Shown here in pieces: positions 36,270 to 54,220 of a stretch of 64,000 nucleotides of DNA. This stretch comes from a virus. Taxonomy: Duplodnaviria > Caudoviricetes. Location of the stretch: positions 1 to 64,000 of IMG/VR virus record IMGVR_UViG_2593339273_000007, one strand, 5' to 3'. The notes under the pieces are model-generated. The model was given only the letters and a program-made list of their open reading frames with translations, was not told the DNA's origin and did no database searches. A program made the position numbers and the translations under genes. The first letter of the stretch is position 1. Each line of letters opens with the position of its first letter.

Positions 36270-36605
36270 AGTATGCCCCCTTCTTCTCTATACAGAGATT
36301 TCATTTTATGCTATACTTTTATACAAATTTTGAGTATAAAAAATGATGACAGTCTATCCATCATCAAAGTTTAAAAGTTTTGTGGAAGCCTTTAACCCTT
36401 GATTTTTCTTGGATTTATTGTACTGTCATCATTATAGCATTATCCCCACACCCACTTTCGCCACAAAGTACTACACATTGACCTTTTGATATAGTTCCTT
36501 TTACATTATCTAATGTCTTTTCTTTTTTTCCTTCATAAGCAAAGTCTATTTTAAAATCCAAAATATCTTCACTTCTATCAGTTATACGACTCATAAATTC
36601 AACCC

Positions 36606-37328: not shown

Positions 37329-37422
37329 GTCCTGAGTAAAGGTTTCGTATATTTTTCACGCTAACTTCACTGGTATTCCCTCTCTTTTTAAAACCTTTAA
37401 TTTTTCCTGTTTTTCTATTCTC

Positions 37423-37494
37423 TCATTTGTAAACTTCTTCACTGACAGGTATAGCTTTCCCTTTGACATAGATGTAATATTCTTTTTTATCCAT
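37423..37494 (-). pseudogene. 23-codon remnant of an ICE sigma-factor-like regulator
   Basis: AGGAGG RBS followed by MDKKEYYIYVKGKAIPVSEEVYK*, resembling the N-terminus of ICE sigma70-region-4 proteins (recalled). Confidence 0.5.
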
Positions 37495-37539
37495 TGTGCG
37501 TTCCTCCTTTTTCTGCTCTCTGATTTTGGTTTTTGAGAA

Positions 37540-37612
37540 TAAAAAAGGAGGACTTCTACACTTTGGCGTAAAAAGTCCTCCGATTACAACAAGGAAATTG
37601 TCCTTTGTTGTA
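37540..37612 (-). terminator. Double hairpin and terminator downstream of the adhesin gene
   Basis: TACAACAA...TTGTTGTA hairpin, then GGAGGACTT...AAGTCCTCC followed by T6. Confidence 0.7.
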
Positions 37613-37699
37613 TGGTCTTTATTCAGTTTTCGGTCTTGATTACTTAAAAATCTTTGTTATTGTTTTCACTTCTTTGTCTCCATTCCCATAATACAAATT

Positions 37700-40600
37700 T
37701 TACTTTGCGTGTTTTCTTTTTCTAATACCTAACAGAATAAGTAAACTTCCTGAAGCGAACATCAACCAAGCATATAGGGATAGGTTTGCTCCATCTCCTG
37801 TTTTAGGTAAGCTATTGTTTGTACTTGTGTTTGGTACTTTCGGTTTTTCAGTATTTGGTGGTGTTGGTGGAGTTTCTTTCTCATTAGTGATAGTAAGCCC
37901 ATCTTTCATGCTTCCTCCATAGACTACCTTATACTGCTTGCCATCAAATTTAATGGCATTACCATCTTCTCCTACTTCTTTAACTGTGTATTTGTAGTAG
38001 TCTGTACTTCCAAGTCCATTTGCCACTGCAAGATTTTTGAATACTCCGCTCCAGTTATTACCTGCATTTAATTCAAGTGTTTTTCCTGTAGGATTACCAT
38101 CTTTATATAGTTCTACGGTAATTTTTTCCGTTGGAGCTGTAATGGTGTTTCCTTTATGGTCTTTCCACAGCTTTGTTACCTTGACTTCCCTAATTGGAGG
38201 TTCCATAGGTGTCCATGGTTTTTCCTTTTGATTAGTGATGGTAAAGCCGTCTTTCATGCTTCCGCTATAACTTACCTTAAACCACTTACCATCAAGTTTA
38301 ATGGAACCTGTTGTTTCTCCGATTTCCTTTACTGTATATTGGTAATAATTGGTGCTTCCAAGTCCATCTGCTACTTCAAGGTTCTTAAACTCTCCTGTCC
38401 AGTTATTATCCTTTGTTAGTTCAAGTTTCTTTCCTGTGGCTACTCCATCTTTGTATAGTTCTACTTCAACTTTTTCAACAGGAGCAGTTAAAACATTTCC
38501 ATTATCATTTTTCCATTCCTTAGTAACCTTGATAGTTCTTGTTGGTGGCTCCATTGGTGTCCATGGCGTCTTTTCTTTGTTGGTAATGGTAAAACCATCT
38601 GCCATAGTTCCGTCATAACTTACTCCGAACCACTTACCATCAAACTGAATAGCAGAACCAATTTCCCCTACTTCTTTGACAGTATATTTATAGTAGTTGG
38701 TACTTCCAAGTCCGTCTGCCACTTCAAGGTTCTTAAACTCTCCTGTCCAGTTATTATCTTTTGTCAGTTCAAGTTTCTTGCCTGTAGCGTCTCCGTCCTT
38801 ATATAGTTCTACTTCTATCTTTGTATCAGGTATATTGTTTCCTGCAAGAAGGTCCCATGCCTTTGTTACCTTGATAGTTCTTGTTGGTGGTATCATCGGT
38901 GTCCATGGCGTCTTTTCTTTGTTGGTAATGGTAAAACCATCTGCCATAGTTCCGTCATAGCTTACTCCGAACCATTTATCATTGAATTGAATAGCTGATC
39001 CAACTTCCCCTACTTCTTTAACGGTATACTTATGAATGGTAGGATTTTCTATTGACTCATAGACTTTCAGTTTTTCAAAAGTTACCGTCCAGTTATTATC
39101 CTTTGTAAGCTCTTTTATATCTCCTGTGGCAATTCCGTCTTTATATAGTTCTACTTTAATCTTATCAACAGGAGCTTCATTCAAATTACTTCCTGAAATG
39201 TCTTTCCACTCTTTAGTTACCTTAATATCTCTTGTAGGTGGTATCATCGGTGTCCAAGGGGAAAGTTTTTTGTTGGTAACTGTTAGTCCATCTTGTGTGT
39301 TGCCTCCGTAGCTAACCTTATACCAATCTCCATTAAGCTGAATGGAATTAGCTGTTTCTCCTACTTCTTTTACTGTGTAGTTATATTCATTTCCTTGTGC
39401 ATCTGTTTTATCAAGGTCGGTCCAAGTATATGTGGTTGTTCCGTTTGTTAATTCAATCGGACTCCCCTCATTTTGTCCGTTCTTTAGAAGCTGTAATTTG
39501 ATTGTCGGATGATTTCCTGTTACACCTTCCCATTCTTTGGTTACTTTTACCTCTGTTTTATCTTGTGTATTCTTAATAATCCATAAGTTGTCAGATTCCT
39601 GTTCATAGGTAGCTGCATAACCTTGCGGAACATTCTTCTCTACCACCTTATATTTAATAAGCGTACCGTCCGCTGTATACTTATCAAGTCCCGTAAAGGT
39701 GTGCTTCCAACCTTCACTTTTCTTGAGTTCATATTCTTTTATTACATCGTTGCTACCTTCAGCTCTAAGCTCTACAAGTACAGAATCTCTTTCTGCTCCT
39801 ATCCATTTCTTTTTTACAGAAACTTCTGTTTTTTCAACATTGGTATTGGTGATAACCCACTTGCCTGTTGGATCTTTTTCGTAAGAAACTTTATATCCAT
39901 TTGGAACATTTTTCTCTACTACCTTGTATTTAATAAGCGTGCCGTCCGGTGCGTATTTATCAAGTCCTGTAAAGATATGTTCCCAATTTTCATTTGCCTT
40001 AAGCTCATATTCTGCTACTACATCATTACTACCTTCGGCTTTAACCTGTACGACTACAGAATCACCTGCTGGTCCTACCCATTTCTTTTCTACAGGAATA
40101 TCTACCTTTTCATTATTGGTATTTGTTATGATAAAGCCATCTCCTATTGAACCTGAAATAGATGGAGTATACCCCTGCAAGACATCTTTTTCCTCTGCAA
40201 TGTATTTAATTTCTTCACCTGTTTTAGCATTGTATTTTCTAAGGTTTGTAAAAGTATATTCCCAATCAGGAGCAGACAGTTTATGTTCAGCAACCGGTAC
40301 TCCATCTGCTTTCAAAACAACTGTAACTTCAGAACCTACCGGTCCTATCCATTTCTTTTGGACTTTAATGTCTATTTTCTCCGGTTCGTTTGTGATTGTT
40401 TTTATCTCAAGATTATCAGATGTAACGACCACTGTATATTTCGTGTTGTCAACCAAATAATGATCCGGTGCGGCTATTTCTTCTATTTCATACTCTCCCG
40501 GAATCAATTGCATAGTAACAGCTTCTCCATTTGAATCGGTTATGACCTCAAATGTTGCTCCTGAGGCTTTTCTTGTGATTTTAAATTTAGCATTTTTTAA

Positions 40601-41662
40601 TTTAATTTCTTCATTATCTTCAGCAACTTTAACGATTTTAATCTTGCTCGTTAAATTTCCTTGTCCGCCACCGCCACTTTCTGCATCTTGAAACTGACTT
40701 TGTACAATTTTCCCTGTTTCTGTGCTTGTAAGTTCAGCTGTATTTTTTAATTTAAGTCCTTGTCTATATGTTGAACGATAATGCAGCATATAGGCTTTCC
40801 CATCAAGATTTCCCATGCTATAAGTGAAACTTCTTTTATCTGAAGATAATGTGACTTGATTACTTACATTTACAGGATTTTTTTCAACAGGTTTACCATC
40901 TTCAAAGACTATTTCATATAAAACAAACTCACCTGCCACATACTCAATGCCTTCTGGACTTCCCGGATCTTCCACTTCCAATGTATCTTTGATAATAACA
41001 TTGTTCAAATCACCTTGCTTTGCGTTTATTCGGATTCTCCATCTGACCAGACTGTCACTTGTTAATGTTTGCCCTGAAACTTTATAAAGAATCTCATTTC
41101 CATATTGTGGTGGCACATATGGTTTTAATGTAATATGCGGATTAAAAGAACCGACAGCAATTTCGTATTCACCCTCCTGCTCGACAGGATATGATGTTGT
41201 ATTCCATCTTGCTGTTAAGTGCATATCTCCAGTTATATTGAACTTATCATTGACATAGCTTGTAAAGGTTACTTTAATTTTACCGCCACCGGGTTCTTGC
41301 GGTGTAATAACAGCCCTTGCCATCAACTCCCCTGAAGGAGCATTTATATCAAAATTACAGTATGATGACTCTGGTGGAAATTTAAACTGATCCGGTAAGT
41401 CTATTTCAAAGTAATCTCCTTCGTGTAGTTCATTTCCATGACTTGAAGCATCCCACTTATAGTTCAACTTAAATAATGAGTTGGAAAAATACCCATCAGG
41501 TGGTACAACACCTTCTGAATTTGTGATACTAAAATCTGTAATGTTAACTTGAACTTCCTTGTTCTCCGCAAATACAGTTTCAATTGGTATAAACATACCT
41601 AAAAGCATAACAAAAACTAAGAAGAATGAAGTTAGCTTTTGTATGTTACCTCTTTTTTTCAT
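37700..41662 (-). CDS. LPXTG-anchored Cna-B repeat adhesin
   Basis: Signal peptide, N-terminal Ig/collagen-binding-like domains, about 8 Cna-B repeats (V.K.W...Y.V.E...ITN), LPKTG, TM and basic tail. Confidence 0.93.
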   Translation of the reverse strand: MKKRGNIQKLTSFFLVFVMLLGMFIPIETVFAENKEVQVNITDFSITNSEGVVPPDGYFSNSLFKLNYKWDASSHGNELHEGDYFEIDLPDQFKFPPESSYCNFDINAPSGELMARAVITPQEPGGGKIKVTFTSYVNDKFNITGDMHLTARWNTTSYPVEQEGEYEIAVGSFNPHITLKPYVPPQYGNEILYKVSGQTLTSDSLVRWRIRINAKQGDLNNVIIKDTLEVEDPGSPEGIEYVAGEFVLYEIVFEDGKPVEKNPVNVSNQVTLSSDKRSFTYSMGNLDGKAYMLHYRSTYRQGLKLKNTAELTSTETGKIVQSQFQDAESGGGGQGNLTSKIKIVKVAEDNEEIKLKNAKFKITRKASGATFEVITDSNGEAVTMQLIPGEYEIEEIAAPDHYLVDNTKYTVVVTSDNLEIKTITNEPEKIDIKVQKKWIGPVGSEVTVVLKADGVPVAEHKLSAPDWEYTFTNLRKYNAKTGEEIKYIAEEKDVLQGYTPSISGSIGDGFIITNTNNEKVDIPVEKKWVGPAGDSVVVQVKAEGSNDVVAEYELKANENWEHIFTGLDKYAPDGTLIKYKVVEKNVPNGYKVSYEKDPTGKWVITNTNVEKTEVSVKKKWIGAERDSVLVELRAEGSNDVIKEYELKKSEGWKHTFTGLDKYTADGTLIKYKVVEKNVPQGYAATYEQESDNLWIIKNTQDKTEVKVTKEWEGVTGNHPTIKLQLLKNGQNEGSPIELTNGTTTYTWTDLDKTDAQGNEYNYTVKEVGETANSIQLNGDWYKVSYGGNTQDGLTVTNKKLSPWTPMIPPTRDIKVTKEWKDISGSNLNEAPVDKIKVELYKDGIATGDIKELTKDNNWTVTFEKLKVYESIENPTIHKYTVKEVGEVGSAIQFNDKWFGVSYDGTMADGFTITNKEKTPWTPMIPPTRTIKVTKAWDLLAGNNIPDTKIEVELYKDGDATGKKLELTKDNNWTGEFKNLEVADGLGSTNYYKYTVKEVGEIGSAIQFDGKWFGVSYDGTMADGFTITNKEKTPWTPMEPPTRTIKVTKEWKNDNGNVLTAPVEKVEVELYKDGVATGKKLELTKDNNWTGEFKNLEVADGLGSTNYYQYTVKEIGETTGSIKLDGKWFKVSYSGSMKDGFTITNQKEKPWTPMEPPIREVKVTKLWKDHKGNTITAPTEKITVELYKDGNPTGKTLELNAGNNWSGVFKNLAVANGLGSTDYYKYTVKEVGEDGNAIKFDGKQYKVVYGGSMKDGLTITNEKETPPTPPNTEKPKVPNTSTNNSLPKTGDGANLSLYAWLMFASGSLLILLGIRKRKHAK
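37880..40390. repeat. Coding tandem repeats of Cna-B domains (about 348-bp units in the C-terminal part)
   Basis: Near-identical blocks at 38349 and 38697; PWTPMxPP linkers. Confidence 0.85.
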
Positions 41663-42725: not shown

Positions 42726-42983
42726 TTGACAACAGTTCTATAGTCACACACCCTAAAAACACCTTAAAAACAATAGTCCTGTTGTTACACCAAGCAAAAA
42801 AAGTAGTTCTATTGCTACGACCTCTGATTTCCCAGTGGTCAGAACTATTGTCAAACGCTCTAAAATCATAGTATAAACTCGTTGTCCAAACTTCTGTATT
42901 TTTCTCTAAACCTTTTGATTTCAAGGCTTTTCTATGCTTTTTTTCCTTACTTTCTTGACAGAAGAACTATAGTCTCCACATGA
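42726..42983. repeat. 258-bp element end, copy 1, including an rlmD/rumA-like att sequence
   Basis: Colinear with 44894-45151; minus strand CATGTGGAGACTATAGTTCTTCTGTCAAGAAAGTAA. Confidence 0.9.
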
Positions 42984-43223
42984 GATTATTAGGCTATTTT
43001 GGAAAATTAAATATCTCTGCAAAACCCATTGATTTTATCATAACTATAACATTTCTATTGTTTCAATCATATAATTTTTGATTAGGCTATTTTACATAAT
43101 ATAGAAATTATTAATCTTTTTCAGAGATTTATCGCTCGAAATATCTACCCAGCATCAACTGACATTTTTTAATTTGCATATAGTCGCAACTTTAAAATAA
43201 TAATATACTTATTTTCACTAAAC

Positions 43224-43844
43224 CTATTTTAATTTATCTGCAGCCGGATCCACTTCATACCAATGTTCTGAATTTCTTTTACACTGTAATGCAGCCACTC
43301 TTTTTGTAACTTCACGCTTTATTTTTCCATCTGAATTTAATACATCTATCCACTCTACTGGTTTATTGAAGTATTTCATTTTTCCACCACATATAGGACA
43401 TTTTTCAATATGAATTTTTTCTATTGTAATCTTCCTTCCAAGTCCACTTATCGCATAATTAAAGAATAAGGGGTGTCTAGTTTCTTTTTTTGTGATACTC
43501 CTTAACCAGAATATCAGCACCAAAACTAGCATTGTTACAGCAAAAATTACGGCATATATATTATTGTTTGTGTTAACTTGATTACTCTTGTTGGTCAATA
43601 AATTAATTACAGGTTCAAATGTTTTATACATTGGAAAAACCCCTATCAATGAAATGAAAAATCCCATCCATGAAAGTAATGCCATTGTTATAGGACTTCT
43701 CCAAACAGGATCTGGTGTATATTTCGCAATCCTATCTTCTTCATGTTCACTAAATTTGTTATTTCCTGTCACGATATTAGTAGGTCCATTAAAAACATTT
43801 CCTGAAAAATTATTAATATTTGACTTAGAATATTTATCTCCCAT
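43224..43844 (-). CDS. Two-TM protein with C-terminal Zn-ribbon (start probably MGDKY at 43844)
   Basis: AGGAGG RBS; two hydrophobic segments; CPICGG...C...H. Confidence 0.75.
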   Translation of the reverse strand: MGDKYSKSNINNFSGNVFNGPTNIVTGNNKFSEHEEDRIAKYTPDPVWRSPITMALLSWMGFFISLIGVFPMYKTFEPVINLLTNKSNQVNTNNNIYAVIFAVTMLVLVLIFWLRSITKKETRHPLFFNYAISGLGRKITIEKIHIEKCPICGGKMKYFNKPVEWIDVLNSDGKIKREVTKRVAALQCKRNSEHWYEVDPAADKLK

Positions 43845-43857
43845 ATGTATCCTCCTA

Positions 43858-44820
43858 TTATTTTCCTCTCTTCGAGCTATATTTTTTATTCTTTCTACGC
43901 ACTGTTCCATCTTCTAAAACTTCCACATTGCTGCGGGACTCCATCTCAAGTTGAACTGCTTCAAATTGCTCTTTTGATATTATTCCCTCATGGTGTTCCT
44001 TATTCAAATACTGATTCTCGGAGCCGCCGGAATCAGCAATTGCCACATCTCCTGTATACTTCTGCCTTGTTAATGTGGATTCAATTCCTTTTTTGCTCCA
44101 GCGTTCTTTTCCTTTTGGCGATTTAATACCGTTTGTTTCCAATCTCTTTATAATTCCACCTATGCTACACCCCTCCAGATACCAATTAAAAATATCTCTG
44201 ACGACTTTAGCTTGTTCGTCATCAATAACTAGCATTCCATATTTATCTTTTTTGTATCCATAGCAAGGACGATTATATAATCCTGATGTACCGTTCTCTG
44301 CTTTCCTCTTCAGCCCCCAACGTATATTTTCACTTCTCCATTCATTCTCAGACTGTTCACAAGCTTCAATCACACTTATAAGCAATTCATCGCCTATTGC
44401 TTCTGTGTCAATCTTATCTCGTTCAAAAATAATTCTTTTGCCCGCTGCACGAATCTTTCGTATGGCTTCCAGACATTCCTGTGTGTCACGTCCAAAACGA
44501 CTAATACTTTTTGTAAGTATAATATCGATATTTCCTTTTTCACATTCACTTATCATTCTATTGAATTCTATTCTTGATGTTCCTGTTTTAGCAGAAGCAA
44601 CATCTAAAAAAATATCTGCTACAAACCAAGTCCTATGAGCTACCGCCAATCTAGTGAGTCCTGATACTTGTGTAGACAAACTTTCCATTTGTTCCTTACG
44701 GTTTGTACTCACACGAGCGTAGATACCAACAGCATAATCCTTAATCACTCTACGAGGTTGTATCACTGTTATATTTTCATGAATTCTATTTAGTTCATCC
44801 ACACTCGAGTCCCCTTTCAA
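43858..44820 (-). CDS. Short large-serine-recombinase-family protein (catalytic + recombinase domain, no Zn-ribbon/coiled coil); start probably GTG 44802
   Basis: YARVST, KSISRFGR, SENIRWG, CYGY and YTGD motifs; ends at about 315-320 aa. Confidence 0.9.
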   Translation of the reverse strand: MKGDSSVDELNRIHENITVIQPRRVIKDYAVGIYARVSTNRKEQMESLSTQVSGLTRLAVAHRTWFVADIFLDVASAKTGTSRIEFNRMISECEKGNIDIILTKSISRFGRDTQECLEAIRKIRAAGKRIIFERDKIDTEAIGDELLISVIEACEQSENEWRSENIRWGLKRKAENGTSGLYNRPCYGYKKDKYGMLVIDDEQAKVVRDIFNWYLEGCSIGGIIKRLETNGIKSPKGKERWSKKGIESTLTRQKYTGDVAIADSGGSENQYLNKEHHEGIISKEQFEAVQLEMESRSNVEVLEDGTVRRKNKKYSSKRGK

Positions 44821-44893
44821 ATTTAGTATAATTAAATTGCTAATTTAGCATAATGATTATTAGTCTATTATCGTAATTCTTAATCAAAAAAAT

Positions 44894-45151
44894 TTGACAA
44901 CAGTTCTATAGTCACACACCCTAAAAACACCTCAAAAACAATAGTACCGTTGTTACACCAAGCAAAAAAAGCAGTTCTGTTGCCACACCCCTCTATTTTC
45001 CAGTGGTCAGAACTATTGTCAAATGCTCTAAAATCACAATGTAACCCCTCTGTCCAAACCTCTGCATTTTTCTCTAAACCTTTTGATTTCAAGGCTTTTA
45101 TACAACTTTTCTTCTTACTTCCTTGACAGAAGAACTATGGTCTCCACATGA
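44894..45151. repeat. 258-bp element end, copy 2; attachment junction with the prophage
   Basis: Colinear with 42726-42983; supplies HVETIVLLSRK* to the phage tail gene. Confidence 0.9.
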
Positions 45152-46128
45152 ACACTATATTTACCACCTGACCATGTATGTTTATCTTTATCAATATAGA
45201 ACTCTCCAACTAATCCTGTAAAGCTATCCTTAACCTGTACCTTGTAGCCACATTTACAATCTATATTGCCAAATCCTGAAATACTACAAGTTTTTTCAGG
45301 ACCCTTTAATTCATTTTTAATTTCATCATCAGATAAAGCCTTATCCTTTCCTTGTTCAATAACCTTAGTTATATAATGATATAATTTTTTTAGCTGTGGA
45401 TCGATTTTTTCTTTTACCTTGTTTCCTTTTTCATCAACAACCAATACCCTACTTACCATATCATTCATCGATATTTTATAGCTAGCTGATTCTATATTGC
45501 TTGACTCCTCAAACATAAGCTTCAATTTAACTATACCTTTTTCAACGACGTTAAACTTATCCAAATCAACTTCAATCATGTATTTTTTATGAGCTTTATC
45601 TTTCTTAGAATGCTCTGTATACGCACTCATTATAACATCATATCTAGTAGCACCAATAAACAGCTTTGTAATTTTAGTTTCAGCAGGTGCAAGCTTACCA
45701 TAAGCTAAAGCATGTTGACCGTCTTTTCCCTTAAACACCGCTTTTGCAATATCACAAGCTGTTGTGTTTACAAAATTATAACTTACTTGATCCTTACTCA
45801 ATAAGAAGCCTATATCAAAAGCCGTCATAGATAGACGATTATCTGTATTTGATTTATCAATATCTATTATAGTTCCTCTGAATATCTCTTTTCCACCTAC
45901 ATAAAAACAACAAGTAGAGCCTTCTACTATACCTATTTGTTGTATTTTTGAGTCATTTACTGCTTGGATAAATGAAAACTCCAAACACCTAGATGGGGAT
46001 TTAATATCCCCACTCCAGGTAACAGATGATAGTACGCTAGATAGTTTATAAAATTTACCTTGTCTAATGTGAACTATTAGTTCTATGTCTTCATTTTTAT
46101 ACTTCATTAAGGTATCACCAACTTCCAA
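45115..46128 (-). CDS. XkdQ/YqbQ-like baseplate hub protein with an ICE-derived C-terminus
   Basis: VTWSGD...R.LEFS, IFRG.I, G.FYIDKDKHTW; follows the LysM gene; last 11 aa come from the att repeat. Confidence 0.85.
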   Translation of the reverse strand: MEVGDTLMKYKNEDIELIVHIRQGKFYKLSSVLSSVTWSGDIKSPSRCLEFSFIQAVNDSKIQQIGIVEGSTCCFYVGGKEIFRGTIIDIDKSNTDNRLSMTAFDIGFLLSKDQVSYNFVNTTACDIAKAVFKGKDGQHALAYGKLAPAETKITKLFIGATRYDVIMSAYTEHSKKDKAHKKYMIEVDLDKFNVVEKGIVKLKLMFEESSNIESASYKISMNDMVSRVLVVDEKGNKVKEKIDPQLKKLYHYITKVIEQGKDKALSDDEIKNELKGPEKTCSISGFGNIDCKCGYKVQVKDSFTGLVGEFYIDKDKHTWSGGKYSVHVETIVLLSRK

Positions 46129-46787
46129 CCACTATATATTACATTAGATTTTTTTAATTGTGGGTACTTCTTTAAATTCTCTGCATTTGATGTTATCTTT
46201 TTATATTTAGAGCCATTACCGTAATATTTCTGTGCAATCATAAATAGATATTCACCATGCTTTACAGTATGTATTTTAGAGCTTTTACTTAACTCATTTT
46301 TTTCTAGGTTTCTCGAATACACTTTATTTGGAACTGTATTTGATGGATTTGAACTCTTTGAGGTGTTCGGAGGTGTCCATTCTGGAATAATGATATCTTC
46401 ATCTTCCTTTAACTCTAATGTGAAATATACATCCCCACTTCCATCTTTTTCAAGAAACTCAAAATGGCTTATTCTTACAGGTATGTTAATAGGTGTCGAT
46501 GTCACAATATATCTAAGTCTTTCCCCATCTCTACACCATTTTTCTAGCTTATTAACGTAACTATATGGGTCTGTTGTAGGTCCATCTATAAATTGATAAT
46601 TAGCACCCTCATGTGGGAAAAAACTGGATAAACTAATCGAGGAAGGCTCATATCCATTAAAGATATTTACCTTCCCTTTTTTTACTATATTTTCCCCTGA
46701 GATATCAGCATTGATATTTTTCCCTATCTCTGACGGTATAACCGGAAATCTTAAATTTTCAGTATTTGAATTTAGATATACTTCCAA
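46107..46787 (-). CDS. XkdP-like LysM tail protein
   Basis: LSSFFP and GDVYFTLELKE motifs; C-terminal LysM HTVKHGEYLFMIAQKYYG. Confidence 0.9.
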   Translation of the reverse strand: MEVYLNSNTENLRFPVIPSEIGKNINADISGENIVKKGKVNIFNGYEPSSISLSSFFPHEGANYQFIDGPTTDPYSYVNKLEKWCRDGERLRYIVTSTPINIPVRISHFEFLEKDGSGDVYFTLELKEDEDIIIPEWTPPNTSKSSNPSNTVPNKVYSRNLEKNELSKSSKIHTVKHGEYLFMIAQKYYGNGSKYKKITSNAENLKKYPQLKKSNVIYSGWKLVIP

Positions 46788-46790
46788 GTT

Positions 46791-48740
46791 TTATACACCC
46801 CCTGCTTTAGCCAATTTCATTCTTTTTACAAGTCTACTAACTAATAAATCAATATCGGCTTCTTCTCTTACTGTAATATCATTTATATTTATCACAATAC
46901 GTTCTTGATCTCTATTTTCATACTCATTTGCCTCTCGTTTTGTCAGTAATTTTTCCCCTTGATGAGCTCTAATTGGGTAGTTGTCATAGGGTATTCTTGA
47001 CTGTCCCATAGCTCTTCTCGCATATGAGGGTACTCCACTGTTGTCTACACCTATGCCACCGCTACTACTGCCTGTTTGGAAACCATCTAAGCCATTAAGC
47101 CCCTCAAAGTTGGTATTTCTCATATGATTGATAGTTTTATCCCACCATTGCATAACATCTTTTAATGCGCCAACGATACCGCTGATAGCATTATTAATCC
47201 CAGTTAATAGTGGTAATATTACTTTATCAGCAAGTTTAAGTTTCACCTGCATTAATTGCCATTTTTTCTCCCAATCAGATGCCAATAATTTTATTGCATT
47301 TTTTATAAAATCAGGATTTTCTTTCAAAAATTTAAACACATCTTCAGCTACACCTTTGAAAAATTGGAATACATCCCCCATTCCTTCAAATGCACCATTT
47401 ACCTGTTGACCAAACATATTTATGGCTTCTTGTGCTTCCGGAGAATTAGTAATAATATGATTATAAACATCATCCAGCATATCCGTTATTGGCTTCGCTG
47501 CCGTTTTTAGCTTACTAAAATCGATACCCCCAAAATTAGTAATATCTAATAACTTCCATAGTCCGTCAATAGCTTTTTCTGCATCTGTAAACAAACCGCT
47601 AAAGAAATCCTTAACTATTTGACTGTCGAAAATCTTTTGCATTCTTTCATACATAGGTGTATATACTTTTGATTCTAGTAAGTTATTTGCTATTACCCAA
47701 GCATCTTTGAAGTTCATAGGTATATTTTGGAATTCTTTATTTACCTGTTCTGAATTTTTAAGAATTGCACGTTTAACTAAATCAGCAGTAAGAAGACCCT
47801 CTTTCCCGGCTTCCTTAATGCCCATTCCAACTTCTTTTTCAATCATTTTCGCCATTAGTGGAGCTGACTCCCTTATCGTTCTAAGTTCATCACCTTGGAG
47901 TGTACCACTTGCCAAACCTTGATTTAACTGATACATTGCTGAACTTGCTTCTTCTCCTGATGAACCACCTTTTCTAAATGATTGCATAGCAGTTTGGTAG
48001 AATTTAGCAGCTTCTTGAGGTTTACCGCCAAACACATCAGGTGACATCTGCATAAGCTTAGTCATACCATTTCTAACATCAGATAAATTTGATCGTGAAT
48101 TTCTAGCTACACCCTGGACTAGACTATCATATCCACCAATACTCATACCACCTCTATCAAGTGAACTTGCCCTAGCTTTGTAATCCGAATAATTATTATA
48201 TCCGTCAATTGTAACTTTTATGACCTTATCTTTAAGGCTATTAAGACCTTGCTGAATCTTCTGTATTCCCCATTGGGTCATATCGTTTAATTTCACTTTA
48301 ATATCGTTATATGCACTTTTAGCAAGTTTCCCAATCCCAAGGCTTATCAATCCTATTCCAGCCAACACGGGATGTTTTCCTAAAAGTTTAAGTGGGATAC
48401 TTCCAAGTGGTCCTAGCTTATTAAGCTTACCACCGATGGCATCCAACCCTTTAGATGCTAAATCTTTTACTTCAATAGGTATCTTATTCGATTTTTTTAT
48501 CATATCACCAAAAGATTTGTACTTCTTTGATACTTCATCAACTTGTTTTTTAGCATCCTTACCATCCACTTTTAATTTTTTATTACCTTTCAAGCTCTTA
48601 TCAAATTCCTTATTGGCTTTTTCAATTTCTTTCGTTTCCTTTTTAAATTTTCTAAGCTCCGCTTGCATCCGCTTTAATTCTTTAGTCATTAAATCTTCAG
48701 CTTTAAACCTAGCTTTCAATTCTGTTGTATTTGTTGCCAT
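46791..48740 (-). CDS. Tape measure protein
   Basis: AMYQLNQGLASGTLQGDELRTIRE tape-measure motif; position after the chaperones. Confidence 0.92.
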   Translation of the reverse strand: MATNTTELKARFKAEDLMTKELKRMQAELRKFKKETKEIEKANKEFDKSLKGNKKLKVDGKDAKKQVDEVSKKYKSFGDMIKKSNKIPIEVKDLASKGLDAIGGKLNKLGPLGSIPLKLLGKHPVLAGIGLISLGIGKLAKSAYNDIKVKLNDMTQWGIQKIQQGLNSLKDKVIKVTIDGYNNYSDYKARASSLDRGGMSIGGYDSLVQGVARNSRSNLSDVRNGMTKLMQMSPDVFGGKPQEAAKFYQTAMQSFRKGGSSGEEASSAMYQLNQGLASGTLQGDELRTIRESAPLMAKMIEKEVGMGIKEAGKEGLLTADLVKRAILKNSEQVNKEFQNIPMNFKDAWVIANNLLESKVYTPMYERMQKIFDSQIVKDFFSGLFTDAEKAIDGLWKLLDITNFGGIDFSKLKTAAKPITDMLDDVYNHIITNSPEAQEAINMFGQQVNGAFEGMGDVFQFFKGVAEDVFKFLKENPDFIKNAIKLLASDWEKKWQLMQVKLKLADKVILPLLTGINNAISGIVGALKDVMQWWDKTINHMRNTNFEGLNGLDGFQTGSSSGGIGVDNSGVPSYARRAMGQSRIPYDNYPIRAHQGEKLLTKREANEYENRDQERIVININDITVREEADIDLLVSRLVKRMKLAKAGGV

Positions 48741-48743
48741 CTA

Positions 48744-48938
48744 CTACCCCCTTTCTCCCACCATAAAAGGGCAAAGTTGATATTTTTTCTCGTCTAATCT
48801 ATCTTCTATTTCTTTGAATAGAAATGCCTTCATCATTCTATATTCACCAATATCTGATTTCTTTTTTTTATATAATTCAGATGGAGTCAGTCTTGCGTAC
48901 TTCCAGAAATAGTAAAAAGTACGCAATTCATCATCCAC
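48744..48938 (-). CDS. Tail assembly chaperone extension (gpT-like, reached by -1 frameshift)
   Basis: Open in the -1 frame from the A AAA AAC slippery site at 48947-48953. Confidence 0.75.
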   Translation of the reverse strand: MDDELRTFYYFWKYARLTPSELYKKKKSDIGEYRMMKAFLFKEIEDRLDEKKYQLCPFMVGERG

Positions 48939-48943
48939 CTCAA

Positions 48944-49381
48944 TTAGTTTTTTATTTCATCTTCCTTTGGTATATTATTAATTAAATTATCATATGCAGC
49001 ATATAATAAATCTATTTCGTCTGGGGTAAGCAAAACTAATACGAGATCAGTTGGTGTCCCTACCTTAAACTTGCTTATAAGTTCTTTATTTTTAAATAGT
49101 GCTTCACCATTATAGAATACAGAATAAACTAAAGTCAGCAACTTTCTCATCCTATTATTTTCAGCCATTTCTAGCTTCCCTTTGTCTGCCATCTTAAGCT
49201 TGTAACCATACTCTTCAAGCTCTGCTTCTTGCTCCAAACTCATCCTACGCATTTCAATGATAAAAGGTTGATTAAACATTCTAGACAAGCTATCTATTTC
49301 TATTTCCTCTTTTTTAACTAAAAAATCATCTCTATCTTTACTAAGCAATAAATCAATCAAATTAACATTTTTTTCACTCAT
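48944..49381 (-). CDS. XkdN-like tail assembly chaperone
   Basis: Between tube and tape measure; LL.PDEI motif; ends EIKN*. Confidence 0.85.
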   Translation of the reverse strand: MSEKNVNLIDLLLSKDRDDFLVKKEEIEIDSLSRMFNQPFIIEMRRMSLEQEAELEEYGYKLKMADKGKLEMAENNRMRKLLTLVYSVFYNGEALFKNKELISKFKVGTPTDLVLVLLTPDEIDLLYAAYDNLINNIPKEDEIKN

Positions 49382-49392
49382 TTTTTATCTCC

Positions 49393-49839
49393 TTATATCA
49401 AATCTATTGGGTCAAAATCATCAAATGTAAATGGGGCTTCTATTTTTCCAACCTCTCCATTTTTAAAGTCAGCAAGGGTTAAGTCATCAAATTGCACTCC
49501 CATATATCTAATTCTTTCAGCTCCCACATTATCAGGGTCATCAAGCTTAGATATAATTTCAAAACTAATTGTTTTTTGCTCTTTCATTCTAACACCAATC
49601 AACTTTGTCATTCTTGATGAAACCTTAGTCATAGTGCAAGACCCTTTACCCTCTGCTCCTGTTGTTTTATGGGCGTCTATCATTTGTCTTGGTCTTGGTA
49701 TTGCCGTCTTTTTAAAATCTATTTTAGCTTGAAACCCTTCAAGTTCTGCAACATATTCCCCATCTAACCACAGCTCACCGAAAGTACCACTTATACCATC
49801 AGTACCTAGTATCTGTTTTACTTGTTCTTTATCTGCCAT
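49393..49839 (-). CDS. XkdM-like tail tube protein (start probably MADKE)
   Basis: ISGTFGELWLDG, SKLDDPD..GAERI and EAPFTF motifs. Confidence 0.92.
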   Translation of the reverse strand: MADKEQVKQILGTDGISGTFGELWLDGEYVAELEGFQAKIDFKKTAIPRPRQMIDAHKTTGAEGKGSCTMTKVSSRMTKLIGVRMKEQKTISFEIISKLDDPDNVGAERIRYMGVQFDDLTLADFKNGEVGKIEAPFTFDDFDPIDLI

Positions 49840-49852
49840 ATTTAAGCACCTC

Positions 49853-50953
49853 CTAAACATTTATATTTATATAAAAATCTTCCATAGCATCCACGCCCTT
49901 AAGCGTTATCACTATAAAAACTTTTGAACCAGTATTAAATTCTTTAAGCTCCTGTTCACTCAAAGATTTTACATCAACACCCTTTTCAATCAAATATTTT
50001 TTTTGTGCTTCCATATCAATATTTACAGAAAATCCATTTGCTATCATTTCACTTCTGTTCAAATCCTCTAAAAATCCTTTTATTTCAGATATCAGCAAAC
50101 ATTTATTATCATAGCTATTAGATACCTTACCTACATAAAAATCGGTAATGGACTTTTTAACAGCGTTATTAATCATCTTATACGTTCGTACTAGCTTTAT
50201 TTTCTTGAAAGTTTCTCCTTCATTTCCATCAACGCCAGTTAGAGATGTAACACCTCTGGCTATTCTTACTTTACCGCCTTTTTTTACGAGTACCAACTTA
50301 CCAGCATTTATTAAAGAGTTCAATTCTTCATTAGTTTTTTTAGGTATATTAGTGATGAACGGCACATTGCAATATGTTATGGATTGTGTAAAAGGTGTAC
50401 CTGCACACGCACCAACGATAAAAGGCAATAGTTTATTGGCAGTGTAGGTAACTGAACCTTCCTTTATATTATCTGTCGCAAACTCAATCACACTACTTGA
50501 ATTACTTGGATTATTTGTTGCTATTACAACATCCGCCCAATGTCCTATTTCCTTAAGTTTGTTAATGAATGCTATTAGCTTTGGATTTTCAACCTCGTCT
50601 GTAGCATCAGGCATACACATATAATTGAATTCAACATTTTCTAATACCTCAAGTGCGTTATCTAATGTATCATCACTACCTATTGAATATACAATAACCT
50701 TTGATGGTGTGTACGCTCTTTCCTCAAGCACCCCACCTACTCTCACATCCTGAATATTACCTTTGAATGCGTGCTCTATATACATAAGATTATCAGATTT
50801 ATACTTTTCAGTTACTTGATCAAATGACACGTATTCTTTCAAACCCTTAACAGTTGAGTCCTTTAATATCAAAAGAGCCACACTAGTACTAGCACCTTCT
50901 AATGCTCTTCTTTTTTCTTCTTTGAAACTAATTTTTAACTCAGTTAGCCCCAT
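49853..50953 (-). CDS. Tail sheath protein
   Basis: IARGVTSLT, FKKIK, GKVSNSYDNK and DAMED motifs. Confidence 0.92.
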   Translation of the reverse strand: MGLTELKISFKEEKRRALEGASTSVALLILKDSTVKGLKEYVSFDQVTEKYKSDNLMYIEHAFKGNIQDVRVGGVLEERAYTPSKVIVYSIGSDDTLDNALEVLENVEFNYMCMPDATDEVENPKLIAFINKLKEIGHWADVVIATNNPSNSSSVIEFATDNIKEGSVTYTANKLLPFIVGACAGTPFTQSITYCNVPFITNIPKKTNEELNSLINAGKLVLVKKGGKVRIARGVTSLTGVDGNEGETFKKIKLVRTYKMINNAVKKSITDFYVGKVSNSYDNKCLLISEIKGFLEDLNRSEMIANGFSVNIDMEAQKKYLIEKGVDVKSLSEQELKEFNTGSKVFIVITLKGVDAMEDFYININV

Positions 50954-51443
50954 TTTTTACCTCACTTTCTATTTTTAATACGTCACTACTACGCATTCTT
51001 ATAACTTCAATCACATTACTATCATTTTTATCAAAATATACCTGTTCATGATAACTTGTTTTAATGCTAAAATTCAAAGTATACCCCACTTCATCTTTTA
51101 GTATCAAAGTGTCAATATCGGATATATGAATATATCTTCTACCAACCTTTATACTTCTTACAAATTGAGTTTCTAACAATTCTTTGATTTCATTTAAATC
51201 GGATTTTTTAACTCTACCGTGTGGGAAGTATCGTATGTCAATTACAAGTGATTTTTTATTAAAGTGTAAATTTACTGATTTTGAATTTTCTATATGAACA
51301 TCAATAAAAAAACAGCTACCTTTATTTAAATATAATTGTAATTGGTCGTCATCATCTGTTATTTTACATTTATAGTCAGTATCCTTTATGGTCTCATAAA
51401 TCATAGATGATACTGATTTAATCAATTCATTTATCTTAATCAT
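50940..51443 (-). CDS. Tail terminator/completion protein
   Basis: CFFI...IDIRYFP pattern; position before the sheath gene. Confidence 0.7.
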   Translation of the reverse strand: MIKINELIKSVSSMIYETIKDTDYKCKITDDDDQLQLYLNKGSCFFIDVHIENSKSVNLHFNKKSLVIDIRYFPHGRVKKSDLNEIKELLETQFVRSIKVGRRYIHISDIDTLILKDEVGYTLNFSIKTSYHEQVYFDKNDSNVIEVIRMRSSDVLKIESEVKNGAN

Positions 51444-51904
51444 TATTTACCACCCGTAATCTCATCCAATATTCTTTTACCTTCTTTTTCTAATGTTTCT
51501 TTTCCTACCTTCATAGCATTTCTAAGCATAAATTTACCTGGAACAAATAGTATTTTTCCATCATCACCAACTACACTCTTACGTCTACGCTTAGATGGTT
51601 TAAGTCCCATACCTGCCCTAGTCCTATGACCGTATTCAACATCCCAAGCATAGTATTCCCCCTTAGACTGTACATCGTTATATATTTCAACCGAATCTCC
51701 TAAATCTCTTATTTTCCATCCACGTCTTAGATTTCCTGCCGTTTTAGCTTTAGGATTTTTATTCACCGGAGTATTTTCAACCACGTCTTCAAGTATTTCA
51801 GTAGCAACAGTCATTTTTAATTTATCAAATTCTTCAGGTATTTTCTTTTCAATATTTTCAAGTCGTTTTATTAACTCATCCATTCCCTCAAATTCAAAAC
51901 TCAT
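51443..51904 (-). CDS. HK97 gp10-like neck protein (start probably MSFEF at 51904)
   Basis: NTPV...GNLRRGW...YAWDVEYGHR...VPGKFML. Confidence 0.88.
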   Translation of the reverse strand: MSFEFEGMDELIKRLENIEKKIPEEFDKLKMTVATEILEDVVENTPVNKNPKAKTAGNLRRGWKIRDLGDSVEIYNDVQSKGEYYAWDVEYGHRTRAGMGLKPSKRRRKSVVGDDGKILFVPGKFMLRNAMKVGKETLEKEGKRILDEITGGK

Positions 51905-52236
51905 TATACTCTCTCCTTCAGCGTTACCGGAATCTCTAAATGTGACGCCCACTTAAAAGGTATACCTGCCACACAATCATATACACGACCTAAATGAGTT
52001 ATAACAAGTTTATCACCCTCTATAACATCTTCTTCAGGTCGTGTATACACTGTATAATCAATAACTATTTCATTATCGTGATATCCTGTGGTCGCCTTAT
52101 CTAGTTCACAAAGCACATTAGATTTAATAGTTTGTGGCTTCATTGTAGTTAAGTGTGAATCATCTTCTATTTCCATGTGTCTAATTATATCCATTCTATC
52201 ATGGTAGGTACTTGCCAATATGTCTGATTCTCTCAC
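51904..52236 (-). CDS. Head closure/head-tail adaptor
   Basis: Synteny; GDKLVIT...SHLEIPV pattern. Confidence 0.7.
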   Translation of the reverse strand: MRESDILASTYHDRMDIIRHMEIEDDSHLTTMKPQTIKSNVLCELDKATTGYHDNEIVIDYTVYTRPEEDVIEGDKLVITHLGRVYDCVAGIPFKWASHLEIPVTLKERV

Positions 52237-52608
52237 TTAGTTACCTCCATTCATTCTGATAGTTCCGACTTTCTTAAACCTTATTAAATGCGTTTTATAT
52301 TTACTTATCAAATCATCCACACTTGTTATTTTAGTGTTAGTACTAACATTATATTCTATTTTCGTATTCCCTCTAGTTATGGATTTAATCCCACCTGTAT
52401 TTTGAGTATCTTGACCACTAGAAGATAGTGATTTATTATACTCAGCCAGCATCTCCACAATAACAAGTTCTAATTCGGTTGGTATATCTTCCCTATTACA
52501 ATAGTTTTTTATCTTTTGAATTAGGATATCGAGAACGAGAGATATAGTTATCTCGTTCTCGATAGTTCCTACTAATATCTTGAGTTTTTCAATTATTCTC
52601 TCGTTCAT
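52237..52608 (-). CDS. Head-tail connector (gp6/gp15-like)
   Basis: IKNYCNREDIP.EL and IKSITRGNTKIEY motifs. Confidence 0.85.
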   Translation of the reverse strand: MNERIIEKLKILVGTIENEITISLVLDILIQKIKNYCNREDIPTELELVIVEMLAEYNKSLSSSGQDTQNTGGIKSITRGNTKIEYNVSTNTKITSVDDLISKYKTHLIRFKKVGTIRMNGGN

Positions 52609-52619
52609 CTAAATCACCC

Positions 52620-53465
52620 CTAAACAGCTTTTATCTGACAAGTAAAATTAACCAATGCCTTTGGTTCAATAACTTTTGTACCATAAACAAATAACCCTTT
52701 TACCGCATCAGCAAAAGTTTTTTCTGGTCTGTATGGCTCTATCTTTGTTATCTGACCTGCATAGCTAATTGCTTGGTCTGTTCCAGCCATTATTGAATAC
52801 TTCTTAGTTGATACAGGCACGTTATTAGACATTCTAAGGTTAAACCCTGCTACATCAGCACCATCCACTACACCATTTTCTAGCACTTTGAAATCCTTAG
52901 TGAATCTTGGGTCTTTTGATAACATCCCTAAATACCAAGCTGGTATAATGGCAAATCTGCCGGCTCTTGTTACATTATTTTCATCTAGTTTAACAGCCAA
53001 ATCAACTAACTGATCATAAGCGTTCGCTACTTCAATATCAACAGGTGCTGACGAAGTACCAACTTTTATTCCTGCATCTTTTACAAAACTCGCTATATGT
53101 TGATCTATTACATCACCAATCGCATATGATGCTCTATCCATAGCTTTATCAACTAACTTAATATTCGCTTGAGCTGCGTCGATATCGTCAACTTTAAAGT
53201 TAAAATATTTCGCTTGGTCTATAACTAGTTCCTGTTGAGTTGAAGTTATTTCTTCTGGGTCTGCAAGCTTCTTTGCTGCACCATCACCAGTTAAATAATC
53301 TTTTATTGAGATAGGTCCAATCTGATTAATTTTAACCTTATCACCCAAATTTTTGATTTCCCCTTCGTAGTCATGATTTACCACATTAGCATACACTAAT
53401 TTTTTATCTAAGTTTGCAAGTAGCCTAGCACTCCACAGTGTAGGTATAAAATTCTTTACTGTCAT
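52620..53465 (-). CDS. Major capsid protein
   Basis: FIPTLWSARLL, YEGEI..GD.VKI and FADAVKGL.VYG motifs; follows the scaffold gene. Confidence 0.9.
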   Translation of the reverse strand: MTVKNFIPTLWSARLLANLDKKLVYANVVNHDYEGEIKNLGDKVKINQIGPISIKDYLTGDGAAKKLADPEEITSTQQELVIDQAKYFNFKVDDIDAAQANIKLVDKAMDRASYAIGDVIDQHIASFVKDAGIKVGTSSAPVDIEVANAYDQLVDLAVKLDENNVTRAGRFAIIPAWYLGMLSKDPRFTKDFKVLENGVVDGADVAGFNLRMSNNVPVSTKKYSIMAGTDQAISYAGQITKIEPYRPEKTFADAVKGLFVYGTKVIEPKALVNFTCQIKAV

Positions 53466-53486
53466 ATTAATTCACCATTACCTTTC

Positions 53487-54116
53487 TTATAACTTCATGC
53501 CTTTGATTGAATCCCAATTTGCATTGATTTCATCAATAGACATACCCTTTAGCTTATCCACAGATATCGTAGTATTCTTGTCAGTAGTCTTGGGTGTTTT
53601 TCCTTTTAACCTCTCAGTAACAGCCTTTTCTACTGCACTATCAAACTTTTCTTTAAACAGCTTGATATTTTCATTTGTAGATTCAGCATTTTCACCCATT
53701 AAAAAAGAACTAAATTCAACATCAAGCCCTTGTTTACCAAGTTCTTTTACTGTCTCTAGTTCCAATTGGTCTCTCTGAAATTTTGCCCTCTCTGATTCAA
53801 ACTTTTCCTTTTCTTTCTCAAACTGTGCCTTTGCTCTTTCATCTGCTGTCATCTTAGCAAGCTTCTCAGCTTCTGACTTTTCCTTTTCTAGTTTCTCCTG
53901 GTACTCTTTTTCCCATTTAGCTCTAGACGATTCCATCGCCTGTGTAACCCTTTTATCAGATTCAGATTGAATTAATTTCTGTAGTTCCTCATCTGTGTAA
54001 GTTTTACTCTCTGGCTTGTTTTCTTCTGGTGGATTCTCACCACCATTACCAGCTCCTGTATCTTCTGCCAGTAGCTGTAAATTCATTCTTAATAGTCCCT
54101 GTAAGTTATTTTTCAT
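53487..54116 (-). CDS. Capsid scaffolding protein (DUF4355)
   Basis: MNLQLLAE, EAEKLAKMTADERA and V.ERLKGKTP motifs. Confidence 0.9.
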   Translation of the reverse strand: MKNNLQGLLRMNLQLLAEDTGAGNGGENPPEENKPESKTYTDEELQKLIQSESDKRVTQAMESSRAKWEKEYQEKLEKEKSEAEKLAKMTADERAKAQFEKEKEKFESERAKFQRDQLELETVKELGKQGLDVEFSSFLMGENAESTNENIKLFKEKFDSAVEKAVTERLKGKTPKTTDKNTTISVDKLKGMSIDEINANWDSIKGMKL

Positions 54117-54185
54117 CCCTTATAGTTACTCCTTTCATTGTAATAAAATAAGACCTTTTAACGTCGTGTCTAGGACGATTGTATT

Positions 54186-54220
54186 AAAAAAAGCACCTCA
54201 ACATTTACTGTTAAAGTGCT
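54186..54220 (-). terminator. Intrinsic terminator after the YjcQ-like gene
   Basis: AAGCAC...GTGCTT stem followed by T7 on the minus strand. Confidence 0.65.

Follow-up and report, generated by a model that had tools for sequence, protein, structure and literature searches.

A prophage tail-protein gene closed in frame by the rlmD-like end of a serine-recombinase island

In the stretch of DNA analyzed here (64,000 nt, referred to as the window; G000:C21:166865-230864), the gene for an XkdQ-like prophage tail protein is joined in frame to a mimic of the 3′ end of rlmD, a methyltransferase gene targeted by a family of serine-recombinase elements, and the mimic is supplied by an island of this family. 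The joint lies between positions 45151 and 45150, at a codon boundary, and the final phage codon, GTT at 45151, encodes valine. In the ORF listing, the minus-strand ORF 45115-46128 has 337 codons and the C-terminus DKHTWSGGKYSVHVETIVLLSRK, which is parsed as DKHTWSGGKYSV-HVETIVLLSRK and a stop codon, so that HTWSGGKYSV is followed directly by HVETIVLLSRK, as the original prediction had read it. Contigs of four public runs (X1-X4) were compared with positions 43000-47500 of the window. In run X1, the probable source, a single 8463-nt contig of an independent build extends from 45070 to beyond 47500 with 0 differences, connecting 82 nt of repeat sequence specific to the copy at the joint to more than 2.3 kb of phage sequence, and the depth is equal on either side of the joint (457 versus 451). 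All sampled words of the joint are present in one of the 20 listed runs, X1 only (the sampled-word content of runs X5-X20 is below 0.6), and the runs thus offer no independent confirmation of the joint. The fusion of a phage tail protein to the tail of a methyltransferase (RlmD) is real, and any protein called from this ORF should be annotated as such a chimera. The features of the region are collected in Table 1.

Table 1. Features of the prophage end and of the adjoining elements (window positions)
Feature	Position	Strand	Remarks
Conjugative element E2, part in the window	1..36466	-	Pfam; colinear at ~93% identity with G022:C1:96940-175778; near junction at ~36466
ABC ATPase gene of E3, 5′ fragment	36415..36594	-	first 59 codons, cut in the Walker A codons (GESGCG, then DNAIMMTVQ and a stop); near the E2 junction
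E3 cargo: 1320-aa Cna_B/collagen-binding surface protein and TetR regulator	36606..41662	-	Pfam
E3 small serine recombinase, resolvase type, 201 aa	41938..42543	-	Pfam Resolvase, E = 7e-30
Repeat copy A, left end of island E3	42726..42983	-	reads SHVETIVLLSRK and a stop; stop codons upstream
Start of island E3 (copy A)	42983		E3 follows E1 and contains E2
Module E1, 2.2 kb	42984..45150	-	copy B, short recombinase, orf228, right arm ending in CCTAATAATCT; from comparison with G168 and metagenomes
orf228, membrane protein	43224..43910	-	C-terminal Cys-rich motif; conserved partner of the short recombinase
Short serine recombinase, 320 aa	43858..44820	-	Pfam Resolvase and Recombinase domains; no zinc ribbon or coiled coil
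Repeat copy B, left end of module E1	44894..45151	-	repeat families D5, D9
Grafted HVETIVLLSRK (11 codons) and stop	45115..45150	-	mimics the rlmD 3′ end; comes from the island, at the start of repeat copy B
XkdQ-like tail protein gene, portion of phage origin (326 codons)	45151..46128	-	YQBQ/XkdQ domain complete, C-terminal lysin half missing
Remaining prophage late genes	46107..58981	-	LysM XkdP-like, tape measure, XkdN-like, tube, sheath, major head protein, portal, large terminase; PHROGs, Pfam

On the phage side, residues 36-329 of the ORF product match positions 1-292 of the 294-position Pfam YQBQ profile (E = 8.8e-40), and phrog_400 is matched with E = 8e-97, yet only at positions 14-334 of 654. 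The closest named relative is found in locus L010 of Peptostreptococcus anaerobius VPI 4330, where residues 1-329 of a 671-aa homologue share 77% amino acid identity with the window protein. The L010 gene reads HTWSGGKYTV-DLELNFDNIMDEK at the equivalent of the joint, runs on to 671 aa with YQBQ, Glucosaminidase and CHAP domains, and precedes XkdR/S/T/U-like genes, genes for fibre, holin and endolysin, and the host gene miaB. Intact relatives in general read KY(S/T)V-DLELNFDNIM before the glucosaminidase and CHAP part, in agreement with the earlier claim that a secondary site inside the phage gene was used. Matches were obtained in 41 of 50,697 phage records, whose annotation of the gene is cell wall hydrolase or C40 peptidase; of the 25 listed, 22 align as far as query residue 329, one as far as 328 and two as far as 317, and none extends past residue 329 into the grafted tail. 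In phiCDHM11, the gene extends 810 nt beyond the match and precedes baseplate, fibre, holin and amidase genes. The intact allele was also recovered in all three bovine gut metagenome runs compared (X2-X4, from another study than X1), in which phage-side contigs of ~96-98% identity cease to match exactly at 45151 and then translate as DLELNFDNIM. Since intact alleles run on past the joint and the downstream genes do not follow here, the window gene has lost ~335-345 codons and everything downstream, and it is an XkdQ-lysin fusion without its enzymatic half. The late genes that remain are in the order of phiCDHM11, and the tail order of PBSX-like phages and C. difficile myophages is followed through XkdQ, with the XkdR/S/T/U baseplate part absent.

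The grafted codons form the outer end of a 258-nt repeat (family D5), whose two copies in the window, A and B, are 88% identical, a similarity far beyond chance. The sequence CATGTGGAGAC(T/C)ATAGTTCTTCTGTCAAG(A/G)AAGTAA (minus-strand sense) stands at both 42948-42983 and 45115-45150; the recurrence of the last 11 codons near 42948 that had been noted earlier is thus part of this longer repeat. BLAST of both copies against all 37 contigs of the 2.28-Mb assembly returned just these two places (E = 4e-90), and the remaining matches were all ≤46 nt with E ≥ 0.037. On the far side of copy B, ORF 44880-45092 contains the relic of an older, degenerate tail (TIELLS). A motif search of the six-frame translation located HVE(T/C)-type tails at four places in the genome. 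Two of them close real rlmD-type genes, on contigs C13 (455 aa, ending in PHVETIALIQRAKL) and C7 (ending in HSVHVECVALLTRNCNDFKY), and the other two are copies A and B, neither of which has an rlmD body: copy B stands behind the phage gene and copy A behind stop codons. The identification of HVETxxLLS as the C-terminus of RlmD holds for these two host genes and for the rlmD genes of genomes G149, G203 and G155. Both host rlmD genes lie outside the window contig, and the element is not integrated in rlmD in this genome.

The origin of the grafted end became apparent when positions 43858-45151 were searched against 401 genomes of the order. Matches at E ≤ 0.001 were obtained in 49 of them, mostly as weak recombinase similarity, and strong matches occur in G149 (two loci), G203, G168, G054, G246 and G093. 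In G149, which belongs to another family, a complete 448-aa rlmD ending in FPQCNN|VETIALLSRK is closed by the same 258-nt end (94% identity), with the recombinase behind it; the repeat begins at its second base behind rlmD, within 2 nt of the position of the joint. That an entire rlmD in G149 ends in this repeat shows that the graft is genuine and derives from an element of the rlmD/rumA-targeting serine-recombinase type, as had been proposed. At the HVE site of G149, rlmD thus receives a new 3′ end from the element, and such tails stand on rlmD in G203 and G155 as well. Altogether, 10 HVE-type tails were found in nine fetched loci; three close rlmD ORFs (G149, G203 and G155) and seven are internal to arrays, which fits tandem accretion. 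The G149 element could be followed for 3 kb beyond its short recombinase, to the contig end after an IS110-type transposase, and was set aside as a guide to the remainder of the element. The most complete arrangement is that of G168, from the same genus as the host, in which rlmD is followed by an ICE ending in a 600-aa zinc-ribbon recombinase, an HVEC tail in the 3′ end of that recombinase gene, a short recombinase, an orf228 homologue, the same right arm (ending in CCTAATAATCT) and another HVEC tail. The far attachment site has the same anatomy in G168 and G246, with the HVEC tail inside the 3′ end of a 600-aa recombinase gene. A single full-length integrase with Resolvase, Recombinase and zinc ribbon parts is present in G168 and absent from the host genome, where the best match to the 600-aa enzyme is the 320-aa short form (34% identity).

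Colinearity of module E1, the unit at the joint, with G168 extends from 44779 to 42955, and the sequences diverge to the right of this stretch. Homologues of its short recombinase comprise a 314-aa protein in G168 (78% amino acid identity) and degraded forms in G149 and G054. The product of orf228 has no Pfam match and shares 75% amino acid identity with a 206/212-aa ORF beside the short recombinase of G168. In runs X2 and X3, E1 contigs are 99.8% identical to the window (4 differences in 2151 nt), and the match ends at 45150, where unrelated sequence begins. It is conceivable, if rather improbable, that E1 is a self-sufficient minimal integrative element, with the recombinase and orf228 acting at rlmD-like sites and phage tail-lysin genes of the ATAGTGTT-NAT type as recurrent secondary targets; such modules would then disarm prophages. 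A zinc ribbon and a coiled coil are thought to be necessary for large serine integrases.

The DNA next to the joint had been described as an ICE, and it is in reality four nested or stacked elements. The ICE, which is shared with genome G022 of the same genus, is not joined to the tail gene: it begins at ~36466, 8.7 kb from the joint and inside the ABC ATPase gene of E3, and the 2.2-kb module and 6.5 kb of E3 lie in between. A paralogue of the E3 resolvase, 86% identical, is located on contig C17. The ABC ATPase fragment gives a weak ABC_tran match (E = 0.0037, below the Pfam cut-off), and beyond E2 the island resumes with the remainder of the ABC gene, further ABC genes and a sigma-like gene. 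Homology of E3 with G168 ends at C21:88754, at the position where G168 has its 600-aa integrase; therefore, E3 has lost its integrase end. When the 247 nt that lie upstream of copy A and two short spacers were compared with the genome by BLAST, no meaningful second copy of the other arm of the array emerged, the sole real matches being the regions upstream of paralogous resolvases at C21:54.2 kb and on C17. Contig C21 is a patchwork of truncated elements, with a second prophage remnant at C21:65-88 kb and a decayed adhesin/TetR copy at C21:49-54 kb. Overall, the array consists of at least four stacked or nested elements that abut a truncated, dead prophage.

Element E2 is ~108 kb long and has three serine recombinases. 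Within the window it encodes ParA/ParB, RepA_N and DnaC-like proteins, a T4 coupling protein (T4SS-DNA_transf, E = 4e-58), a VirB4-like ATPase (weak, with AAA_10 and TraC_F_IV below cut-offs), PrgI, TrbL-like (TrbL_2) and CHAP hydrolase proteins, a topoisomerase, an AbiE pair, methylases and a 3941-aa ORF. The part outside the window contains a relaxase-like ORF (C21:163264-164676, 48% identical to that of G168 and assigned from its N-terminal motif only), an NRPS cluster, ABC transporters and the recombinase genes. The ICE gene set of coupling protein, VirB4-type ATPase, relaxase and integrase module is thereby represented. The three recombinase genes are in tandem at C21:96857-132171 and encode a 576-aa protein, a split middle protein and a 524-aa protein; the middle gene is divided by an element of 30.3 kb (C21:99876-130206) that has a G+C content of 50-55% and encodes a recombinase itself, and the halves of the gene are contiguous in G022. 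The G022 copy of E2 (G022:C1:96940-177941) is ~93% identical and colinear with C21:203330 down to C21:96862. The element has discrete ends, as identical end sequences are found in G000 and G022 in different ABC ATPase genes. In both genomes, the ends of E2 split the Walker A codons G-x-S-G-x-G and K-S-T-L-L of these genes. The true far end lies at C21:~95560, 1.2 kb beyond a palindrome (GGCGAGA..TCTCGCC) that follows the third recombinase gene; the palindrome was considered as an attachment site and rejected, having no partner on C21. For the delimitation of ICEs, this use of Walker A codons in two ABC ATPase genes by a three-recombinase ICE may be the more useful observation. No report of an insertion of the E2 type into Walker A codons was found in word searches of the open-access literature, which is weak evidence of absence.

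No baseplate, fibre or lysis genes follow the XkdQ-like gene in the window. This part of the earlier description stands, and the part that had them replaced by an ICE does not, as the adjoining DNA is E1 and then E3. Among the contigs of the assembly, profile matches to Baseplate_J occur on C32 and C36 only and those to YQBQ on C21, C32 and C36; therefore, the other two prophages each own an XkdQ. When the ORFs of C32 and C36 and 19 ORFs of L010 were used in tblastn against the assembly, no third baseplate, fibre or lysis set was detected, and permissive tblastn and blastn searches for the lysin tail returned just the gene of C32 itself and an unrelated NlpC/P60 domain in a GC-rich element. 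The reciprocal junction and the xkdQ tail are absent throughout the assembly, which is rated 100% complete in 37 contigs, with a 1537-base contig outside the search, so that absence of the phage remainder means absence from this assembly. The end of contig C25 that adjoins miaB, the gene after the intact prophage in L010, carries no phage remnant. In the closest relative, G102 (91% nucleotide identity), synteny departs from C21 at 47.5 kb and is taken up again midway along contig C26, beside an IS110-type gene; this alignment shows a rearranged region and says nothing on the phage remainder. The prophage is without about 9-10 kb of essential late genes and is permanently defective. The question of whether the insertion made it too large to package is moot for that reason. 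Reversal upon excision had also been proposed, with the xkdQ 3′ tail and the baseplate genes expected to resume at the other end of the element, and neither was found in the assembly. As the distal phage genes are absent, together with a full-length rlmD-type integrase (the sole recombinase of this lineage being the 320-aa form without a zinc ribbon), excision could not restore the phage.

The joint probably arose by recombinase-mediated integration of E1, or of E1 and E3 together, at a secondary site, followed by loss of the far end. The breakpoint coincides within 0-2 nt with the element boundary, for which G149, copy A and the metagenome contigs each give the position. Moreover, the rlmD genes of host contig C7 and of G168 have, just before CATGTGGAG, the very octamer, ATAGTGTT, with which the phage sequence reaches the joint, and the codon phase is the same at the phage and rlmD sites (SV|xxE). 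This 8-mer occurs 123 times in 4,554,814 genome positions (2.7e-5 per position). The metagenome phage allele matches the C7 site at 13 of 17 central bases, and outside the 8-mer, agreement of the left arm with the rlmD arm is no more than moderate (11 of 24; P = 0.037 against random genome positions). A break at the element end next to an 8-mer shared with the rlmD site points to secondary-site integration by a recombinase and subsequent loss. At the joint itself, the intact allele of the metagenomes and L010 has G (GAT) and the recombinant has C (CAT); therefore, the canonical identical 2-bp overlap fits only if the phage of this strain had C or if the core lies elsewhere, and the core dinucleotide is not fixed by the four junctions compared. 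In the missing reciprocal junction lies the reason why integration cannot be told from other rearrangements made by a recombinase.

We infer a recombinase as the maker of the joint, and with it the enzyme responsible and the order of events, which may have been as follows. An rlmD/rumA-targeting serine-recombinase island, moving either as module E1 alone or as an array with island E3, would have recombined at its own attachment-site core with a look-alike in the XkdQ-lysin gene of a PBSX-like, contractile-tailed prophage. The exchange would set HVETIVLLSRK and its stop codon in frame behind codon 326 and cut off the rest of the gene, ~345 codons that include the glucosaminidase and CHAP domains. 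E2 is a passenger, lying 8.7 kb off inside the ABC ATPase gene of E3 and carrying its own three-recombinase module. A later loss would have removed the distal integrase end of the island along with the remainder of the tail-lysin gene and the baseplate, fibre and lysis genes, leaving a permanently defective prophage and an immobile island array.

A recombinase could also have produced the joint by an intramolecular deletion, in which an array at a chromosomal rlmD downstream of the prophage recombined its left junction with the phage look-alike, and a circle with the distal phage genes, the intervening host DNA and the rlmD body was lost. Such a single step accounts for both the missing reciprocal junction and the missing distal genes, and agrees equally well with the 8-nt look-alike and with the location of the breakpoint at the element core. 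However, both rlmD-type genes (C7 and C13) are kept in the host genome and the same number is present in five of five same-genus genomes searched, so that a third copy would be required, and the truncation of the far end of E3 at C21:88754 is left unexplained. Large serine integrases are known to recombine attP with attB, or attL with attR, and are not known to recombine attL with a pseudo-attB, as the deletion would need. We regard this route as unlikely, and still less likely is an illegitimate, recombinase-independent deletion or rearrangement that ended by chance at the first base of the island. Non-specific breaks clearly happen on C21, in view of its patchwork of truncated elements and the cut in E3, but a random break would rarely fall both within 0-2 nt of an element end seen in three other contexts and beside an 8-mer shared with the natural target at 2.7e-5 per position.

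A misjoining of contigs at the 258-nt repeat is suggested by the presence of two 88%-identical repeats 2.2 kb apart, within which the X1 contigs break. The joint is, however, at the edge of the repeat and not within it, the contig of the separate build spans it with 0 differences at even depth, and no alternative phage-side joint was reported in X1, which makes an assembly artefact very improbable. That HVETIVLLSRK is the native end of the phage protein has the open frame itself in its favor and nothing else. It is refuted by the L010 gene, the metagenome contigs and the phage-record alignments: L010, the prophage on C32 and the metagenome contigs all continue differently, none of the 25 listed records (of 41) aligns past residue 329, and the tail is part of a repeat that also stands behind rlmD. 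We give this reading practically no credence, and integration of the island at a secondary site with later loss is retained as the preferred explanation.

The joint offers a view, at single-nucleotide level, of a site-specific island leaving its normal target for a phage gene that resembles it, and the two parents of the joint, namely the uninterrupted phage allele and the island in a different setting, can each be retrieved from public metagenomes. There is no switch: the phage is dead, the array is stranded and the consequence is ordinary prophage decay. No report of an rlmD-type element in a phage tail gene was found in word searches of that literature either, which likewise is weak evidence of absence.

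Everything seen fits the known behavior of rumA-type serine-recombinase elements. In streptococci, according to the sections of PMC4701971 (Ambroset et al. 2016) that deal with them, ICEs and IMEs with a single serine integrase insert at rumA and swap its 3′ end, the integrase gene contains attR, and secondary sites have been described, sstT being one; ICE_Spy2096_rumA and IME_SpnAP200_rumA are examples of rumA (rlmD) elements given in the corresponding part of PMC5704250. The elements described here share with the former account the target in the 3′ part of a 23S rRNA U-methyltransferase gene, the replaced C-terminus, the far attachment site inside the integrase gene (seen in relatives G168 and G246) and the occasional use of secondary sites that disrupt other genes (PMC4701971, same sections). 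They differ from the streptococcal elements in the host order, Peptostreptococcales by the named relative, in the position of the joint in a prophage structural gene, in the loss of the full-length integrase and in the unit at the joint, a 2.2-kb module whose 320-aa recombinase is without a zinc ribbon. The reading frame is kept here, whereas a frame change is described for streptococci in the part of PMC4701971 concerned. Tandem accretion of integrative elements into CIME-ICE/IME arrays is reviewed in PMC5704250, and the window array shares with the cases outlined in that section the head-to-tail order of like-ended elements, each starting with a copy of the target-gene end, and decayed members without an integrase; those cases involve tyrosine integrases at tRNA or 3′-end targets, whereas the array here is of the serine/rlmD type and has a phage gene at its head. 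For E2, the relevant passages of PMC4701971 describe triplet-serine-recombinase ICEs that target mutT, traG and hsdM; E2 resembles them in its complete conjugation module, in the disruption of a protein-coding gene and in the large serine recombinase genes, three in tandem, at one of its ends. Its target is another one, the Walker A codons of ABC ATPase genes, and the gene hit in G000 is not the one hit in G022. Compared with C. difficile myophages (phiCDHM11 gp15, a 'C40 family peptidase', and phiCD119 XkdQ) and with XkdQ/YqbQ of PBSX, the phage gene has the same XkdQ/YQBQ domain (48% amino acid identity), and the order of sheath, tube, chaperone, tape measure, LysM protein and XkdQ-like genes is that of the C. 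difficile phages, whereas the window copy stops at the end of the XkdQ domain, without the hydrolase half and everything downstream. In reversible gene interruption, as by the skin element in sigK or the phage in comK, both gene halves and a working recombinase are kept. These systems share with the original prediction an in-frame element and a gene restorable upon excision, but in the present genome the second gene half and the cognate integrase are absent. In summary, a known kind of element, of the rumA-type serine-recombinase class, is found at a further secondary site, which is a tidy but ordinary case.

The conjugative element E2, which carries three serine recombinases, is found in two species, each time in a different ABC ATPase gene, whose Walker A codons it splits between GxSGxG and KSTLL. 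The element-side sequence is identical at both ends when the copies in G000 (the genome carrying the window) and the same-genus genome G022 are compared. Together, the two Walker A insertions and the identical element-side ends suggest that E2 site-specifically targets the coding sequence for a conserved protein motif. In G000, the middle recombinase gene of E2 is interrupted by a 30.3-kb element with conjugation-type genes, a large serine recombinase of its own and inverted ends (GTAACGCTATCT(T/C)AC), which is absent from the G022 copy. Both copies of E2 contain an NRPS-like cluster of low G+C content (26–28%; G000:C21:144922-161819, outside the window), whose ORFs include two of 1644 and 2071 aa. 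The RepA_N gene of E2 (window 32457-33467) contains four overlapping 43-nt copies with 23-nt spacing at 32957-33068, which are possibly iterons. Short repeats, both inverted and direct (AACTTTTGTTCAAAATGAGCAAAAGT and its variants), flank a partial C5 DNA methylase ORF and an SSB-like ORF at window 26213-29247; they resemble repeated terminators or a rearranged cassette of small size.

Coordinates of the features described
Feature	Location	Remarks
E2 junction/ABC ATPase fragment	window 36415-36594	joint ~36466
E2 other end in G000	G000:C21:95543-95601	
E2 ends in G022	G022:C1:96823-96940 and 177883-177941	
30.3-kb element	G000:C21:99876-130206	50–55% G+C; outside window
Large serine recombinase of 30.3-kb element	C21:128383-130146	
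Partial C5 DNA methylase ORF	window 28052-28675	profile 62-208 of 324
rlmD-tail motif copies in 258-nt repeats	window 42705-42745, 42934-42974, 44880-44913, 45102-45142	
Host rlmD and facing tyrosine-recombinase gene	G000:C7:1700-3301 and 336-1637	
Recombinase/membrane-protein pair	window 43224-44820; L025:14956-16570	L025 from G168

At the far side of each of the two 258-nt repeats, 229 nt from the first copy of the rRNA methylase (rlmD) tail, lies a second, degenerate copy of this motif (..TIELLSRK or ..TIELLSNFFD, followed by a stop), which is probably a relic of an older accretion step. The host rlmD, located on the 3.5-kb contig C7, is the orthologue of the target gene in the same-genus genome G168. 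Downstream of HVE it departs from the tails seen in relatives (CVALLTRNCNDFKY, then a stop), and it faces a tyrosine-recombinase gene. Yet another element seems to occupy the canonical site.

A 314–320-aa serine recombinase, devoid of both zinc ribbon and coiled coil, forms a conserved pair with a 206–228-aa membrane protein that carries a Cys-rich motif at its C-terminus and lacks any family match. Among the 401 genomes searched, the pair was found in five besides G000. Intact versions occur in G000 and G168, degraded ones in G149 and G054.

Elsewhere on C21, the contig that holds the window, the adhesin, TetR and ABC module of the island E3 recurs in decayed form (G000:C21:49000-54300); this second copy has fragmented genes and includes a 56-nt match to the window's resolvase upstream region (42544-42725). 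A second truncated prophage (G000:C21:65000-88700), with genes for an exonuclease, DNA polymerase, primase, SNF2 helicase, HNH protein and methylases and a split terminase, adjoins E3 at its cut end. This prophage and that of the window are oriented alike but represent different phages.
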